DNA of 60,876 nt, filler included, from Dirinaria sp. TL-2023a (taxonomy: Eukaryota), in NCBI GenBank assembly GCA_051941275.1. It is 12 parts of 12 records of this genome, joined end to end, with 100 filler letters (N's around TTAATTAATTAA, not from the genome) between each part and the next. Parts side by side here need not be neighbours in the genome. Positions count along the whole stretch, not along the records: positions 20,416 to 25,398 come from JAVEBF010001741.1; 11 more parts are not named here. One strand, 5' to 3'. Shown piece after piece: positions 14,181 to 23,736 of the stretch. The translations under genes and the position numbers were made by a program. The notes below the pieces were generated by a model. That model did not search any database. It was not told the origin of the DNA and saw nothing but the letters and a program-made list of their open reading frames with translations. The stretch's first letter is position 1; each line of letters starts with the position of its first letter.

Positions 14181-15219
14181 ATGTCTACCAATGGCGCGGC
14201 CATGAACGGCCAACTGCCCAACACCAATGGCACGAATGGCACGAATGGCACGAGCCCAATGGCTCCAATTCCAGAATCCAACCCTCAAGCCTTTGACTTC
14301 CGCAGTATGATACACCACCCTCACCCCCTCTCTATTTCCTTCCCCTAGCATAAACCAAAAGTAAAGGAAAAGAAAATCAGAGCAATCTAACATACCTTCC
14401 TTAACCAGGCGACGTCGTAACGCGGCGCACGCCCGCAATGACGGCCTCGATCCTCAGCACGAGCGAAGGCGACGACGTCTTCGGCGACGACAGCACGACC
14501 TCGGCCCTGGAAACGTTCATCGCGGAGCTGACGGGGTTCGAGGCCGCGCTGCTGGTCATGAGCGGCACGATGGGGAACCAGCTGTGTATAAGGACGCACA
14601 TGACGGCGCCGCCGCACAGTATTGTTGCGGATGCGCGGAGCCATGTCATGGGCTGGTACGTCTATCTTCTTCCCTGAGTTGAGGTTTTTAATGACGGGAA
14701 TATATATAAATACAGGGAAGCAGGCGGCCTAGCCTCTCTAACCGGCGCCCTCGCGATCCCCATCCACCCATCAAACGGGCACCACCTGACCCTCCCCGAT
14801 CTAAAATCCCACACCATCCTCTCCCACGATATCCACGCCTGCCCCACGACCTTACTCACTCTCGAGAACACCCTCAACGGCACCATCCTGCCCCTCTCCG
14901 CCCTCTCCTCCATATCAACCTGGACCCGCTCCCTGTCGCCCCCCCTCAAAATCCACCTCGACGGCGCCCGCCTCTGGGAAGCGTGCGCCGCCGGCGCAGG
15001 CTCCCTGGCTCAATACTGTTCGCACGTCGACAGCGTCAGTCTCTGTTTCAGCAAAGGCCTCGGCGCACCGATCGGCAGCATTATTGCCGGCTCTGCCACG
15101 TTCATCCAGCGCGCGCGTCATATCAGGAAGGGCCTGGGCGGCGGGATAAGGCAGGCGGGATGGATCTCGGGTCCTGCGCGCGTGGCTGTGGATGAGACGT
15201 TCTTGGGCGGGAAGTTGGG
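14181..15219 (+). CDS. GLY1: Low-specificity L-threonine aldolase (PLP), 3' truncated at the linker
   Basis: Exons 14181-14304, 14409-14655, 14716-gap. Motifs FDFRSDVVT, GDDVFGDD, SGTMGNQL, LENTLNG, HLDGARLW and SLCFSKGLGAPIGS (PLP Lys). N-terminal NGT tandem repeat. Confidence 0.9.
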
Positions 15220-16843: not shown

Positions 16844-18233
16844 ATGTATCTCACAATGACTGTTACCAATGGCACCGAGAGTGAAACGGTCACAGTACCT
16901 GCAGTCATGGGCCAGAAATACGAGACTGTCATCACACCAACGAAGGGCGTTCACGCTTCAGAACGTACAAAGGAACCAACTCTAAATGGGCATTTGAACG
17001 GCGTATCCCAGCCGCCCAACGAAATCACCGTGAACGGTGGCCTTAGCCTGCCAGCAATCCCCACTGTCGACGGCAAGACCGAAGTTGCTACTCCACCAGG
17101 TCAACTCAACGGGCATACGGATGACTTGAAGTCTCTGCAAGCCTTCGGCAATGGCCATGTGGACGAAGACCTGCTCCCATCTACAAAGCTTCAGCGGCTC
17201 CTCAAAGAAACGGACGAAATCATAGTCTGTCCAGGTGTCTATGACGGCTTCTCGGCCCGTATCGCGCTTTCTGTGGGATTCAAAGCAATGTACATGGTAA
17301 GCTGCACTCCAACTCTTGTTGACCAACCTTCGAAGCATTTGCTCATATCAGCCAGACAGGAGCAGGAACCACGGCTTCACGGCTTGGAATGGCTGACTTG
17401 GGCATTGCTCAGCTTCATGACATGCGTGAGCATGCCGAGATGATTGCCAACTTGGACCCTAATGGAACCCCACTGATAGCAGATATGGATACGGGCTATG
17501 GTGGTACGTCCTATGACTCGTGCTTTTTCGGTTGCCCATCCTCCTCTCCTCTCGCTCTCCACCCAACCAAATACTGCATAACAGAGTCTGTGCTGACCCA
17601 CCTTGCTCAGGCCCTATCATGGTCACCAACGCCGTGAATCAATACATCCGTGCTGGTGTTGCAGGCTTTCACATTGAAGATCAAGTGCAACACAAGCGCT
17701 GCGGCCATTTGCAAGGCAAAAAGGTCGTCGAACCTGAGGTCTACCTTTCCCGCATCCGAGCCGCCAAAGCAGCCAAAGACAAAGCACATTCGGACATCGT
17801 CCTCATCGCTCGTACAGATGCGAACCAACAATACGGTTACGACGAATGCATATCTCGTCTGAAAGCTGCGCGGGACATCGGCGCCGACGTCGGTCTGCTC
17901 GAGGGTTTCACATCCAAAGAACAGGCTCGACAAGCAGTGCAAGATCTAGCACCATGGCCTCTGCTGCTCAACAGTGTAGAGAACGGACACAGCCCGCTGA
18001 TCACCGTGGACGAGGCGAAAGACATGGGCTTCCGCATCATGATCTTCTCGTTCGCAGCTTTGGCCCCCGCGTATACGGCTATCAAGAGCACTTTCGAAAC
18101 GCTCAAGTACAAAGGCGTTACAGGAACCCAGAAGGAACTGACACCAAAAGTTCTGTTCGATGTCTGCGGCTTGCAAGACTCGATGACGATCGACGCCAAT
18201 GCTGGAGGACTCGCTTTCGCAGGAGGTGTATAG
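16844..18233 (+). CDS. oahA: Oxaloacetate acetylhydrolase (ICL/PEP mutase superfamily), about 407 aa, 3 exons
   Basis: Exons 16844-17296, 17356-17503, 17611-18233 (1224 nt). Motifs CPGVYDG, TGAGTTASRLG, ADMDTGYGG, HIEDQ..KRCGHL and IARTDA. IMIFSFA carries the Ser reported to distinguish OAH from Pro-containing DMML-type paralogues. Confidence 0.88.
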
Positions 18234-21200
18234 GCAAGCCAGAGGTACCGCAGGCAGTTATTGGCCGTTTCAGACTTTGACCGAATGCTTATTTCATTTC
18301 CTGCGAGCTTGGCAAGATTAAGTGTCATTTAGAATTCAATGTTAGTAATCGTACTGATTTGACATTGCGTATCATAATACTTTACCCTTGCCTCTACCAC
18401 CAATGACAAGCGACAGGGGTATAAAGACCTGCAATCTGTTCCTCGGCATTTTTCCGCTGGCAATACTACATTGTCAGCAGTAGCGCACCTGGTGCAAGCT
18501 GCACCGGTTGCCATCGTTGAGTATCGGGTGCTCGATGGCCCCGGCTGCCGGTTTTTCGTTTTCCAACTCTAGAGAGGCAGATTTATGCAATATTCCTGTT
18601 ACTCATTGACTGTCCGCACAACCAAGCGCACAGGACTCTACAATTCCTTCGTGATACACAAAAGATATTCCTTGTAGTTTTGGGCTGTACCGAACAAATC
18701 TCTCCAAGCGCAATCTCACACCCCGCAAGTTCAATGCCGGCAGGTATCGCGTGTCAGCAGCGTGGGACACCGTCGATCAGTCATCGTGGACATGAGATGT
18801 TAGTAGATTATTCCGAGCCCATGATTGGAGGGAGGAGAAATGGGGACCCTGTAAACCACCCACAAACCGCCATGCTTCTTGCAATGTACGTATCCTTGTT
18901 GCACATCTCTCGGCAGCATCATGGATCTGCTTGCTGCTCCACTCCCCCTCATGCACGCTCCTGGGGTTTCGACGAGTTTCACCCTTCTCCGCGCAGGTAA
19001 TGCACGCACACGAGTCAAATTCATGACGCGGACGATTGGACCAGAATCATTTGTCCACTGAGCGATCAGATGTGGCCAAGACAACGAGTTTGTCTATGAT
19101 GAGCCTATCTTTGAAACTGCAGCAATTTTTCTTCCGGATGATGCCTTCGTCACATCTGCAATATTTTTCAATACCGTGATGGAGGTCCAGACGCGGATGA
19201 AATAAGGTATGTCCCGTACTAAGGTACTTTCCGGTAAGTGCGTCCAGCAAAATGATGGTGTCATACCAAGACCAACTAATTACCTTAACCAATTAGGCCT
19301 AGTCCATCTACGGACCTCTGCCCGCACCCACCCTCTACAAAACCCAACCCACCACCGCGGCATTTGGTCCGCGTGTGTATGTGTGTATGTGTGCTCATTA
19401 CCGGGTTGGTGGGTGGCAGGAGTGAACCTTCTTTGTATGATCCTTCTCGAACACGAAAGACCGTCGAGATAGGCACACCTCCCACCGACCGGAACGGGCC
19501 GTGTCTCAACAATATCCAAACGGAACATGCTTAAAGGTAAAGGATAGTAGGGGGAGTAGCCCCCCACCGAGCCCGCACACCCAAATGAAAACTTCACCTC
19601 ATGCGAGAAACTGTTCTCGTCGTGCAAGATGGAGGCAGTCGGCGAACCCGCCTTGGTGACCCTGTCCAAAAACTCTCTGGTTACTCTCTCCGTAATTTGC
19701 TGTTTTCCCCCTTTCTATTACATAAGAGCAATCGCCGGTTCGGACCAAAATTCCGTTAATAATAATGGGGGAGTGGATTCAAGTGTGTTCTGCCTCGTTA
19801 CTAAAAGCGCCTTTCCCGAAGGGTTCGCATTTCCTTTGATAATGAGTTTTGCTGCACGATCATCTATGATTGCTAGCTACCTTCTGGTCCTCTCTCCCGC
19901 CTCCCTCAAATTCCGCTATGGCAATTCATAAGCGCCACAAGAGCTGCAAATAACGACTTTACATACAAAATGACAATCGAAATCTCATCAAAGCCATTTA
20001 AAAAAAAAAAAAAAAAATCTCCACGCCAGAAACGCAGACCACAAATCAACAATCTCCACCATCAAATTCCCGAAACTTGTATTCAGCTCTCTTCACGCCA
20101 CTCGTCATTGCGCACGATTGCACCACCTTTACATAGAAAAGCACGTTCCAAAACCGTCCTCTCCTCTCCGCAGATACAACGAGGACTCTTCGCAGCTCTA
20201 CAGCCGAAACTTAAGCAACCCCATTTTTTGCCCCGTGACGAGGAAGGGGGGAAGAAAATCGAAACTTCGAACCCAGTGACGCAAGACAAAAAAGTGACAG
20301 CTTTCTATTGACTTCNNNNNNNNNNNNNNNNNNNNNNNNNNNNNNNNNNNNNNNNNNNNTTAATTAATTAANNNNNNNNNNNNNNNNNNNNNNNNNNNNN
20401 NNNNNNNNNNNNNNNGGTGGCGAGACAGCATTGTGTTGCTCACAAGGAGTTTGTCAGTGTTCATCGAAGTGATGTGGACAAAGAATGAGTTGAGTCATGT
20501 TTCGTGAGATATCACAATCGCATTGTTTGACGGGTTCGATGCTGCGATTTGAACACTGGCCTCTGAGTTCCGGATCTATCAGCAGCCGCATGCTAATAAA
20601 AGGGGGATTTTCAGCAAATTAATTGTGCTTGGGATTCGTGAATTAGCATAAATCGCTCCGAGTTCGTACCACCTGTGGATTCCGAAGGTACTTGCTGACG
20701 ACTTCGCTTCCAATCCGGGACGAGTAAGCCATTTGGCATTTTTTGAGAGCTAAGTCTGGGGAGTGAACTGTATCGTTCAAGTCACAAAACCCTCTGCTGG
20801 TGGAAACAGTGTTGCAGCAAGTAGTTGAGGATAGCCAAGATTTGAAACTTCCATACCTCGGCAAGAATGGACGATTGGTCTGTTCATAAGTGCATTCAAT
20901 TCGTCCATTTCTATCGTTCGTGATACTGATCAACTTCAACGGTGTGACTATTCAAGGACGCCATTTCCTTGCTGAACCAGTCCGTCATCAATTCGTGGAT
21001 ACGTTTCATCATGAGTTGCTGGTCTGCTTGGCAAACGCTTAGAATGGGCACCTCGACACGGCGTGTGAGAGTAGCGATGATACTATCGGAGGAAGAGCAC
21101 CTCAGCGTGACTGGCATTGGCGAGTGGGTGCTATATCAAAAACGCTGGTGGAAGGTTCGGCTTACTTCTAATAGCAAGTCCGTAGCTGTGTGATGTAGAC

Positions 21201-21312
21201 TTGTAATGGGTTTTGTAGGCTCGATGAGGATGAATCTTGTATAATATCTTCCTACGAGGCATATTTCACCATTTCGCAAGCCGGCGAATCCCTACTCAGA
21301 TGACTAAAAGTG

Positions 21313-23736
21313 TCACTTGGACATATTTAGCCCTATCTGCTCAAAGACTTCCTTGAAATTATCTGGATCGGTAGCATCAATGAAGTAGCAATATAATTTC
21401 CTGCCGGGCCGTTTATCAAGGCTCCGAAACGAAGTGGCAATATACATGCGGAGACTATTGCTGTCCGTGATGCCGGCGGAATCCGGGAAGAAGTCGGAGA
21501 AAGGGTGTATCTTGAGATTCTCTTCGAACACATCATTCTTCGTAAAGAGAAGGACAATAGGGTTCCCGACGCAAGCGGCGAATTGCTTGAAATCGCTCAT
21601 GTCGGAACTCATCTGATTCTGGAGGAATCGATTAATTAGGCTTTGTTCCCTTTGCCGTATTTACTTACTAATTTGTTAGCGTCCGATGAGCGACGACAAT
21701 ACCCTGACAGCGCCACAGTGTATAGAAAGTAATCAACACTGTGATGCAACATAGGCCATTCTCCAAACCGTCCGAACCGTTCGCCGTTGTCGATGACTTT
21801 GTATAGAACAGATCCAAGTTTGTATGTGAATTGACGCTGGGAGAAACTCTTTCCAGACCTGGCACAGAATATGTCAATATTGGCAGCAGTACATTCATCT
21901 ACAAAAAGTAACCCAATTCGAGATGACAAGCTATGGCTTCATTTAGCGGCGTGTCCAGGCGCGATCGAGTCTGTAGACATACAATTCAATATTGTCGTGA
22001 AGTCCGTCCGAATCCTCCAAGCGCATCAGACGACAAATGCTCGGATCAAGTAGAAGCGTGCGAAACGCTAATACGTAAGGGACAACAGATTCATAGGAAA
22101 ACGATGCCTTCCGCTGCGTTTGAAGGTAACATCCATGAAAAGAGTTAATCATTTTTAAAGACTAAATCTCGCATCAGGTCTGTCCTAAATTGTTGCGGAA
22201 ACCGTGTATACGAACTTGGTGTGCCTGAGTACCTAGATCAATTCCAGAATCATCAACTCTGAAAGAGACCAAGATTGATGCAGACACCAGATTACCCAGA
22301 ATCGTAGTCCGAGCCTCTTCTTTTTCGCCGTCCGTGAATTCGTGTCCTTTCAGCGCGCGTAGGTGTTCAAAAATCGTGGTTTTGCCTGACAACGAGCTCC
22401 CTAAGGCAATAAATCTATCAGCACTCTGGTACCGCAGTGGCTGACTCATTTGCTTGATACTCTGATTGATGAAGTCCGGTCGGCTACTGCATGGCCTGAC
22501 TTGACAAATTGGAGTGAGAGAAGCAAGTCCCAAATCACAGGACATCGCTACCAATTCATTATCGGAGTGGGAACATCACTTTCACCGATGGGTGAACTAC
22601 TTCCCAGAAAGTCAATTTGGAAGAGCTGACCTTGAATTGGGATCTCTAGGGAACGATAGTGCCGGATGGCTGATCGAAGTTTAAATTGAGGGCCGCGTAC
22701 TGCAGTGGGTCTCAGTGGACCAAAGGCTTGTCGTTTACCAATATCAAAAGCACGCGAACGGTTCAGAGCTTGTTCCCTGTTTGGAGGTGATGTATAGTGC
22801 TGGGCATTGGTAAGTTCAGTCGCCACTATTGGCAGCGAAATAACGGAAATATTGGACACATTGGCAAGGCTCAGCCCCGAGAGGCAGGACCATCCGAAAG
22901 ATGGTGCTGTAGAGGATTGCAAAGACATGAGTGAGTCCCTCCACCTCACTCGAGCATATGCTCTAGATTGTCTCAGATCCCGTTCAAACGTAAACTCTTT
23001 CACGGCCGTCACTGTCGATTCGCGTTCTTCCTCCAGAGTTGGATCACTCGCCTTCCGCGGTGACTGGATGGTCGATACGTCGTCTTCGTCTTCAGCCTCT
23101 TTCAACGAAGCTGTAGGTCGTATTGTTCGTTGGGAGGACTCAAGGTTCAGTATCCGTGAATACAGGTCTTGATTGTTCTGCACCAAATCTCGGACAAGGC
23201 TCGTAAGCGTCTCGACAGAAGTTGTAGCCTGGTCGACGGAGGCACTGTATTGAGGGACAGGTCAGCTCAGACGGAGTGGTATGTAATCTCGAACTGGCGA
23301 AGATGTACCATGTCAGGGTTGTGAGCATTAAGTTTAAAGACTGCTTCGAAGAATTTAGACGCAAACACAGCCTCGCCAATACGGGCTCCTTCTTCATCCA
23401 CGCTATTCGACTACCAAGCCGTGTGGGTGTGCCATCATTCAAGGACTCGACCGTCTCTTCAAGCTCCGAAAAGGTCATCACACAGGCTGTCAGTGTCACC
23501 ACGACCTGCTCCACCATGATGAGAGCAGTGCGCGATCGTGAGCCAGCTCTTGTTCCTAGAAGGAAAGCCTGTAGTTGCGCCAGACAGGCGCTGATGTCGG
23601 ATACCTCTTGTAGAACGTCATTGGCGAGTTTGGGGGCATCTTTTGTGCCCCGGACGAAGGTGGTCAAGACCGACGAGACCTTTGCGGTAGCTCCGAGCAG
23701 GCCCACAACTGACGCCGCTACTGAGAGAGGATCCAT
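21313..23736 (-). CDS. HeLo-like (Helo_like_N / fungal STAND N-terminal) domain fused to a divergent G-alpha-like GTPase domain, about 657 aa, 6 exons
   Basis: Exons 23736-23309, 23244-22631, 22400-22216, 22161-21983, 21930-21669, 21618-21313 (1974 nt, all GT..AG, open frame). N-terminus MDPLSVAASVVGLL..DAP..EV..L..L. C-terminal half has EIPIQGSSLSGKTT, DIFCAR, VIDNGER, LLFTKND and FIDATD, collinear with G-alpha G1-G5. Confidence 0.8.

Follow-up and report, generated by a model that had tools for sequence, protein, structure and literature searches.

The stretch of DNA analysed here (the window; 60,876 nucleotides, filler included, from Dirinaria sp. TL-2023a, assembly GCA_051941275.1) consists of twelve parts joined with 100 filler letters between them, and adjoining parts are not necessarily neighbours in the genome. 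The part at positions 20,416-25,398 (JAVEBF010001741.1) carries on its minus strand a gene of six exons (23736..21313) which encodes a HeLo-like helical bundle, an acidic linker, a hydrophobic motif and a complete but degenerate G-alpha domain in a single chain. This architecture, and the existence of a family that shares it, can be regarded as practically certain. The exons splice into a coding sequence of 1974 nt that starts with an ATG at 23736; in a frame check the 657-aa frame had its sole stop at the end, and the protein begins with MDPLS. The introns measure 64, 230, 54, 52 and 50 nt, and all five have GT..AG borders. The features of the gene, with the evidence for each, are as follows.

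21313..23736, minus strand: whole coding region with stop codon, six exons, 657 aa (open frame; RNA contigs of a close relative with all five introns removed)
23309..23736, minus strand: exon 1, aa 1-142 plus 2 nt, predicted four-helix bundle of the HeLo-like domain with MDPLSVAAS start (PigL_N 27.3 bits; AlphaFold2 model; conservation)
23245..23308, minus strand: intron 1, 64 nt, GT..AG (RNA joint 23244/23309 in four of four runs)
22631..23244, minus strand: exon 2, whole (frame and RNA joints)
23127..23244, minus strand: start of exon 2, predicted fifth long helix of the N-terminal domain (to about aa 182), brace-like (PigL_N match of P0151; model of P0091)
22803..22901, minus strand: middle motif SFGWSCLS...SLANVSNISVISLPI, aa 258-290 (conserved in relatives)
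22631..22790, minus strand: end of exon 2, alphaN-like segment and strand beta1, LEIPIQ (alignment of P0023 with Gq; exon end EIAILG in orthologous loci)
22401..22630, minus strand: intron 2, 230 nt, phase 1, GTCAGC..TTAG, joining the two halves (RNA joint in four of four runs; position shared by six loci)
22216..22400, minus strand: exon 3, P-loop GSSLSGKT (aa 348-355) and start of the helical domain (G-alpha 24.6 bits)
22162..22215, minus strand: intron 3, 54 nt (spliced in some RNA contigs, retained in another)
21983..22161, minus strand: exon 4, remainder of the helical domain (RNA joints, frame)
21931..21982, minus strand: intron 4, 52 nt (RNA joint 21930/21983 in three of four runs)
21669..21930, minus strand: exon 5, switch I (ARSGKS) and degenerate switch II (DNGER, aa 516-520) (G-alpha 15.2 bits)
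21619..21668, minus strand: intron 5, 50 nt, GTAAGT..CCAG (net loss of 50 nt in RNA, two of four runs)
21313..21618, minus strand: exon 6, TKND (582-585), DATD (637-640), shortened alpha5 and stop (G-alpha 58.6 bits, E 7.4e-16)

That the two halves belong to one expressed gene with one transcript is confirmed by RNA contigs of a relative from one sample. The contigs, which are assemblies and not reads, come from four runs (X1-X4) of a single study labelled lichen metagenome, and were compared with the window over 21100-24000; the runs contain 15-22% of the sampled words of the window. Since the contigs are 90-99% identical to the window (nucleotide divergence 2-7% per piece), they must stem from a closely related organism (93-96% identical) rather than from the strain sequenced here. 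In all four runs 64 nt are skipped at the joint 23244/23309 (intron 1), and 230 nt at the joint 22399/22630, where moving the cut by one position gives the intron 22401-22630 that joins the halves; in three runs 52 nt are skipped at 21930/21983 (intron 4). The remaining two junctions are bordered by diverged letters. Intron 3 appears in X4 as the joint 22161/22223, with 61 nt skipped and 7 diverged letters between (net loss 54 nt), and in X2 the same junction is seen as 52 letters between 22113 and 22223; intron 5 appears in two of the four runs as the joint 21600/21675, with 74 nt skipped and 24 diverged letters between (net loss 50 nt). One contig of 1801 nt (X2, record 6) spans 23857..21675, from exon 1 to exon 5, with introns 1-4 spliced out, and two others (X1, record 3 and X3, record 7) connect exon 5 with exon 6 and extend into the 3' untranslated region to 21100. 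The six exons, the 657-aa frame, its end coordinates and the long intron between the halves, all first proposed in a sequence-only reading of this DNA, were thus reproduced, and a check for two separate transcripts, the outcome that would have spoken for two genes, was negative.

Intron 3 is not always removed. Record 9 of X3 runs unbroken from 22173 to 22399, and the database open reading frame (ORF) P0151 (428 aa, on a 1599-nt contig of the RNA relative) is the intron-3-retaining form, whose reading frame continues through the first two junctions and terminates within intron 3; this may reflect alternative or incomplete splicing. A start of exon 4 at 22113, giving a frame of 641 aa, was rejected, as the RNA places the acceptor at 22162/22161 and hence leads to 657 aa. 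Within intron 2, none of the RNA contigs compared covers positions 22458-22554; being contigs, they may miss rare isoforms that retain this intron or start in it. The RNA relative also has an in-frame insertion of 18 nt (six residues) behind 22754, in the linker encoded by exon 2 before the alphaN-like segment.

The 3' end of intron 2 (22401-22460, minus strand) is deceptive, as it reads in frame as an ATG followed by RFIALG before the P-loop and thereby mimics strand beta1 of a G-alpha. With this stretch added, the G-alpha match in Pfam rises from 24.6 to 31.7 bits, homologues have a hydrophobic beta1 strand at this point, and several shorter introns keep the frame open. Models with such shorter introns (53, 83 and 131 nt, with RFIALG coding) were nevertheless rejected, on account of the RNA joints and of the stop codons that orthologous loci carry there. 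In these loci, the equivalent VLVVLG or VLVFLG is preceded by two stop codons, and exon 2 ends with the true beta1 (EIAILG). The likeness of RFIALG to beta1 is therefore a by-product of the T-rich intron end. Intron 2 splits the Gly codon just 5' of the P-loop, and an intron between beta1 and the P-loop is common to all six loci inspected (L002, L007, L008, L013, L030 and L041).

The N-terminal domain begins at residue 1 of the protein with a conserved hydrophobic first helix. In Pfam, exon 1 matches PigL_N (PF17111, formerly Helo_like_N) with an E-value of 2.9e-6 and 27.3 bits, the gathering cut-off being 27.2; the spliced ORF P0151 of the RNA relative scores 26.4 bits over residues 1-209, and paralogues score 15-35 bits, with P0039 and P0091 at 15-17. 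An AlphaFold2 (AF2) model of exon 1, built from 102 aligned relatives, has a predicted local distance difference test (pLDDT) of 85.3 and a predicted template modelling score (pTM) of 0.79, with helices at 3-30, 36-59, 75-100 and 106-141; a fifth helix (146-182) is predicted with high pLDDT in the model of the homologue P0091. The HeLo-like similarity claimed in the sequence-only reading is thus borne out, at the Pfam cut-off, and the length is corrected from about 160 to about 182 residues in five helices. Residues M1, D2, P3, S5, A8 and L13 are conserved in at least 90% of the 102 sequences and G12 is invariant, and the first helix reaches a Kyte-Doolittle mean of 1.67 (19-residue window, residues 6-24), which is in the transmembrane range.

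Structure comparison of the exon 1 model with 48,161 representative chains by VIA-align placed MLKL (4btf) third (Z 11.3, root-mean-square deviation 2.6, 100 residues aligned), together with the coiled-coil (CC) domain of Rx (11.0), the MLKL N-terminal domain 6ux8 (10.8), the CC-R domain of NRG1.1 (10.6), MLA13 (9.1) and AtMLKL3 (8.5), all of which are below the Z of about 13 under which, by the tool's own warning, matches are common for helical bundles. A second look with VIA at the top 1000 chains from Foldseek gave Rx 11.9, NRG1.1 11.1, MLKL 10.1-10.9 and NRC2 10.6. The predicted fold of exon 1 is consistent with the MLKL/CC/HELL class, short of proof.

The C-terminal part of the protein follows the order of a G-alpha subunit, as had been recognized in the sequence-only reading. 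Pfam matches to PF00503 are colinear over exon 3 (24.6 bits, profile positions 30-83), exon 5 (15.2 bits, 162-222) and exon 6 (58.6 bits, 252-329), exon 6 alone exceeding the gathering cut-off of 48.8 bits; full-length homologues score 124-154 bits. Among homologues of the G domain with a full sequence, the nearest is P0023, which comes from a metagenome-assembled genome of Heterodermia. It aligns to residues 5-342 of Gq (7dfl), including the alphaN helix (E 1.5e-23), which indicates that a whole G-alpha and not a fragment was fused behind the N-terminal module. In the full-length AF2 model of P0091 (mean pLDDT 58.3), confidence is high for helices one to five at the N-terminus (up to residue 182) and for the C-terminal half of the Ras-like core, and the best matches of the model in the PDB are G-alpha structures (transducin and Gi, about 5e-12; 1tag, E 5.3e-12); linker, middle motif and helical domain have a pLDDT below 50, and the model is uninformative on domain packing. 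Of the structural likenesses that the sequence-only reading had envisaged, that to Gi was seen for the P0091 model and that to MLKL for the exon 1 model, the latter with Z values (10.1-11.3) within the range of generic bundles, and HET-s did not appear among the 50 best rows of either VIA list.

Compared with canonical fungal G-alpha proteins of about 350 aa, the fusion protein retains the alphaN-like segment, beta1, the P-loop, the helical insertion (about 125 residues from the P-loop to switch I), the switch I Arg and the [NT]KxD and G5 motifs in canonical order. The nucleotide-binding motifs G1 (GSSLSGKT, 348-355), G4 (TKND, 582-585) and G5 (DATD, 637-640) are kept. It differs in having about 295 extra N-terminal residues; the G domain is internal, and an MG(C) lipidation site is lacking from the protein, which starts with MDPLS, as already remarked in the sequence-only reading. 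The divergence noted there is likewise evident in switch II, where DNGER (516-520) stands in place of the canonical DVGGQ and the DxxGQ motif is gone, and in switch I (ARSGKS), where the Arg is retained and a Lys occupies the Thr position; we take the switch I Thr to be Mg-binding and the Gln of DxxGQ to be catalytic, with residue roles and numbering from textbook knowledge of Gi. In alignment, the C-terminus falls 8 residues short of the end of the canonical P0057, leaving a shortened alpha5 and no receptor tail. Since the P-loop and TKND are retained, the G domain probably still binds guanine nucleotide; GTP hydrolysis and receptor coupling have probably been lost, as the DxxGQ motif, the catalytic Gln, the lipid anchor and the C-terminal tail are missing.

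Between the two domains lie about 110 residues of low-confidence linker and hydrophobic motif. The linker, acidic and disordered, separates the N-terminal domain from the motif SFGWSCLS...SLANVSNISVISLPI (aa 258-290), which is followed by alphaN. This motif has no Pfam match and is of low confidence in the AF2 model of P0091. It is conserved in P0039, P0045, P0091, P0077, P0023 and P0152, and was matched in 52 of 58 metagenome loci described below, some of which are without G-alpha; it was found in loci with LIM or Ras domains, and L057 and L058 gave no match.

The fusion recurs in a conserved, multi-paralogue family of lichen-forming fungi, and a protein atlas points to other Ascomycota as well. 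An exhaustive phmmer search with exon 6 against 1.84 billion representatives gave 247 matches at E <= 0.001 and 26 at E <= 1e-10, many of them single-exon ORF fragments. Among the 20 longer of the 150 matches listed, Pfam identified both PigL_N and G-alpha at E <= 0.001 in four (P0045, P0051, P0055 and P0115). By tblastn, fusion was seen in seven of the twelve exon 6 homologues tested: in P0039, P0045, P0051, P0055, P0091 and P0115 the similarity extends over the whole of exon 1 (49-57% identity) and also includes exon 6 (30-37%), and in P0077 it covers the final 56 residues of exon 1 (48%) together with exons 2 and 6. P0045 (Polycauliona), P0023 (Heterodermia) and P0055 (Villophora) come from genomes of lichen fungi and are labelled hypothetical proteins. 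In the atlas, P0039 and P0045 adjoin a 94-member Ascomycota cluster (representative 644 aa, score 0.95) which is automatically named 'GNA-3 G protein alpha subunit'. Fusion within a single uninterrupted ORF was found in P0152 (467 aa) and at L050:1425-2939 (505 aa), the latter reading from MDPLS into the helical domain.

Of 223 candidates from a search with exon 1, 125 ORFs had E <= 0.001; most of these, being about 143 aa long, end at the end of exon 1. A metagenome scan with an alignment of 29 close N-terminal domains returned 58 loci, many of which are the same gene in sister assemblies. In 34 of these loci the exon 1 match is followed, after 544-1308 nt and on the same strand, by G-alpha similarity; six of the other 24 have less than 2 kb of downstream sequence. 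Up to five G-alpha-linked loci occur in a single assembly, and a metagenome may hold more than one fungus. When 33 ORFs from 11 of the 24 loci without G-alpha were scanned with Pfam, LIM domains were found after the N-terminal module in L016, L044, L045 and L049 (and below the cut-off in L020), Ras in L051 and ankyrin repeats in L057 and L058; an NmrA gene in L053 is probably a neighbour, and the ORFs scanned from L018 and L035 had no domain found. Because relatives of the N-terminal module carry LIM, Ras or ankyrin C-termini, G-alpha appears to be one of several interchangeable partners, and these sequence data suggest that the module is a modular effector.

Loss of the catalytic Gln is a general property of the fused G domains. 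Switch II was read in 30 loci by tblastn alignment to the canonical P0057; three were gapped, and in none of the 27 informative loci was the Gln present, its position being taken by Arg, Thr, Glu, Val or His. Database members lack it likewise (DVGGS, DVGGT, DVSGT). The GK[ST] and [NT]KxD motifs are mostly retained across the loci, as is the switch I Arg in most of them. The subfamily L030-L052 is otherwise near-canonical (KILLLG, GAGEGGKTT, ARRKTDGI, DVAGTR); the most degenerate G domains are those of the type to which the window gene belongs and of its sister type. The N-terminal domain is the better conserved half: relative to the RNA relative, amino-acid differences number 2/142 in exon 1, 4/204 in exon 2 and 6/61 in exon 3, and between paralogues, too, the N-terminal domain is better conserved than the G domain.

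A family tree was built with FastTree, covering the C-terminal half of the G domain in 23 fused and 14 free sequences; of 19 free candidates, 5 were left out because the switch I pattern did not detect them, and some stitched high-scoring segment pairs cross introns. The degenerate fused types stand apart from free G-alphas, and those that are near-canonical cluster with the free P0057. With its long branches, this tree fits both one fusion followed by fast divergence and several fusions. In a tree of the N-terminal domain (43 rows), types i and ii group together with support (96/93), loci of the LIM type occur in two places, and the backbone is weakly supported.

Comparison with known systems places the protein between several groups. 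Excerpts of published work describe HeLo and HELL domains as membrane-targeting and membrane-permeabilising through their N-terminal helix, as kin to the four-helix bundle of MLKL, and as activated either by amyloid templating or as N-termini of NOD-like receptors (NLRs) (PMC12881547, PMC10197012, PMC9815663). With fungal HELL proteins (PF17111, e.g. HELLP) and the HeLo-like N-termini of NLRs, the fusion protein shares the position of the domain at Met1, the hydrophobic first helix, a Pfam E-value of about 3e-6, a predicted four-helix bundle with a fifth helix, and the placement of the effector ahead of a regulatory module. It differs in that its partner is a G-alpha and neither an amyloid prion-forming motif nor NACHT/NB-ARC with repeats, and in that its Pfam score is at the threshold. 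No NACHT/NB-ARC or repeat domain was identified by Pfam in any exon or in the homologues scanned, and the chain ends with the alpha5 of G-alpha; a kinase-fold match was likewise lacking in exons and homologues scanned. Having neither an NTPase of the STAND class (signal transduction ATPases with numerous domains) nor a C-terminal repeat sensor, the fusion protein is not NLR-like in layout. The proposal of the sequence-only reading that G-alpha replaces the NACHT/NB-ARC regulator of such proteins, or acts as a decoy, is not supported by these results; partners of the N-terminal module appear to be interchangeable, and MLKL offers the nearer analogy.

In common with MLKL, the fusion protein has a predicted N-terminal four-helix bundle, a long connecting helix and a C-terminal enzyme fold with lost catalytic residues; it differs in that the dead enzyme is a GTPase fold of the G-alpha type and not a pseudokinase, so that the likeness lies in layout and is an analogy, not a membership. 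The plant extra-large G proteins XLG1-3 have a long N-terminal extension before a G-alpha-like domain with degenerate GTPase motifs and are linked to immunity; their extension contains a nuclear-localisation and a Cys-rich region, unlike the HeLo-like bundle, and evidence for shared descent of the fusion is absent from this comparison. Four-helix-bundle type domains before a P-loop NTPase of another class were also encountered, namely PigL_N with Ras in L051 and with Ras/Roc in a 77-protein Ascomycota cluster of the atlas (12% with PigL_N), which with a score of 0.83, below 0.9, is a lead only. A norovirus NTPase with an MLKL-like N-terminal bundle, as described in an excerpt of bioRxiv 10.1101/2023.03.17.533118, combines a bundle with yet another NTPase class and is unrelated by descent.

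An amyloid motif and a STAND NTPase are both absent from the protein. The best fit in layout is MLKL, with bundle, connecting helix and a dead enzyme fold as lock. On this analogy we tentatively favour, at somewhat less than an even chance, an MLKL-like membrane executioner gated by a GTPase-dead G-alpha module. The G-alpha-derived domain would act as a conformational lock that holds the N-terminal bundle inactive; a trigger, which could be a change of nucleotide state, a binding partner or a modification of the G domain, would free the bundle; the first helix of the freed bundle would insert into the membrane and permeabilise it; and the outcome would be regulated cell death or a defence or non-self response. 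From published HeLo/HELL work we infer a possible role in immunity, allorecognition or cell death. A broader and somewhat unlikely version is that in ascomycetes an MLKL-type pore-forming domain came under the control of a co-opted G-alpha fold which, GTPase-dead and independent of receptors, serves as its gate (or bait), and that single-chain 'G-protein necroptosis' executioners form a family whose paralogues, several to a genome, have G domains anywhere between near-canonical and fully degenerate.

Several observations weigh against such an executioner. The PF17111 match of exon 1, significant by E-value but at the gathering threshold, is borderline. Foldseek found nothing at E <= 0.001 for the exon 1 model in the PDB, the HeLo domain of HET-s is absent from the top 50 of both VIA lists, and unrelated bundles match or exceed the Z values of MLKL and the CC domains (IncA 13.8, dynactin 12.8, Cbl 12.2). 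PigL_N domains are known also in proteins without a known death function. Among the window ORFs checked (three housekeeping, four without Pfam match), a partner gene of the NLR type or with an amyloid motif was not seen. Finally, the window copy is more degenerate than its orthologues (DNGER where these have DVGGRR or DAGARR, and Lys for the switch I Thr), and for this reason its G domain may be unresponsive to nucleotide.

The alternative that survives best, though we consider it unlikely, is non-lethal signalling, with the N-terminal domain merely anchoring or localising a non-canonical, receptor-independent G-alpha at the membrane in place of the lost myristoyl/palmitoyl anchor. Plant extra-large G proteins signal independently of receptors. 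The near-canonical subfamily L030-L052 retains alphaN, beta1 (KILLLG), the P-loop (GAGEGGKTT), DxxG and both Arg and Thr of switch I, so that some family members look like working nucleotide switches; a missing lipidation site would require another membrane anchor, and the 94-member atlas cluster bears its automatic G-alpha name. This sits poorly with the absence of the catalytic Gln from every informative locus, with the loss of the receptor tail and DxxG from the window copy, and with the N-terminal domain, which is the best conserved part and is also joined to LIM, Ras and ankyrin domains, a pattern better matched by an effector with swappable regulators than by an anchor. Published HELL domains, moreover, are cytotoxic according to the excerpts of that work.

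A sub-case of the gated executioner, to which we assign a small probability, is an integrated decoy or guard: the G-alpha-like domain would serve as bait for toxins or effectors by which competitors act on G-alpha, and modification of the bait would release the executioner. The layout, an effector with a copy of a common toxin target, would suit this, and so would the faster evolution of the G domain (6/61 against 2/142 differences; paralogue identity 30-37% against 49-57%), the several paralogues per assembly, graded from near-canonical to degenerate, and the switch I Arg retained in the window and most loci. The catalytic Gln and the C-terminal tail, however, are sites used by several G-alpha-modifying toxins, and both are missing.

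It is very improbable that the window gene is a decaying relic with a non-functional G domain and a useless product. Decay would fit its DNGER, its Lys at the switch I Thr position and the Pro of its beta1 strand (LEIPIQ; EIAILG in orthologous loci), but the 657-aa frame is intact, the relative that shares the same features has a fully spliced mRNA, amino-acid changes are few for a nucleotide divergence of 2-7%, and P-loop, TKND and DATD are preserved. Two adjacent genes, a HeLo-like one ending at a stop at 22548-22550, to which the exon 2 frame does continue, and a G-alpha-like one starting from the in-frame ATG near 22449 with the score-raising RFIALG, deserve next to no credence, as RNA contigs of all four runs skip exactly 22401-22630, orthologous loci carry two stops directly upstream of their VLVVLG equivalent, and relatives have the fusion in single ORFs.

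Elsewhere in the window a second copy of the family could not be detected by tblastn. Pfam identified three ORFs outside the part that carries the gene, for an S-adenosylhomocysteine hydrolase (26414-27532, minus strand), a member of the PEP mutase/isocitrate lyase family (17517-18233, plus strand) and a beta-eliminating lyase (14678-15217, plus strand); four further window ORFs checked were without a Pfam match. Paired runs of 44 N's occur about every 5 kb between 5011 and 55919, 22 runs in total; they interrupt some ORFs and are unlike assembly gaps in appearance.

In the main texts of the open-access papers searched we found none that brings G-alpha or heterotrimeric G proteins together with a HeLo or HeLo-like domain, and among the matches listed none with both PF17111 and PF00503; the statement of the sequence-only reading that a functional description of this architecture is lacking thus agrees with the literature covered. 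HeLo-like effectors with a swappable partner are known; new, as far as checked, are G-alpha as the partner and the loss of the Gln throughout the family (27 informative loci). In public databases the members are labelled 'hypothetical protein' or have been given an automatic G-alpha name, and because of such labels the family may be tallied as ordinary G-alpha in genome surveys.

G-alpha subunits are receptor-coupled signal switches. If the gated executioner proposed here is real, HeLo-like killers would have a third route of control besides amyloid templating and NLR oligomerisation. It would constitute a new control logic for regulated cell death in fungi and a non-signalling use of the G-alpha fold, parallel to the gating of a bundle by the dead kinase of MLKL. 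The members seen come mostly from lichen-forming fungi, in which non-self recognition and partner control are open questions.

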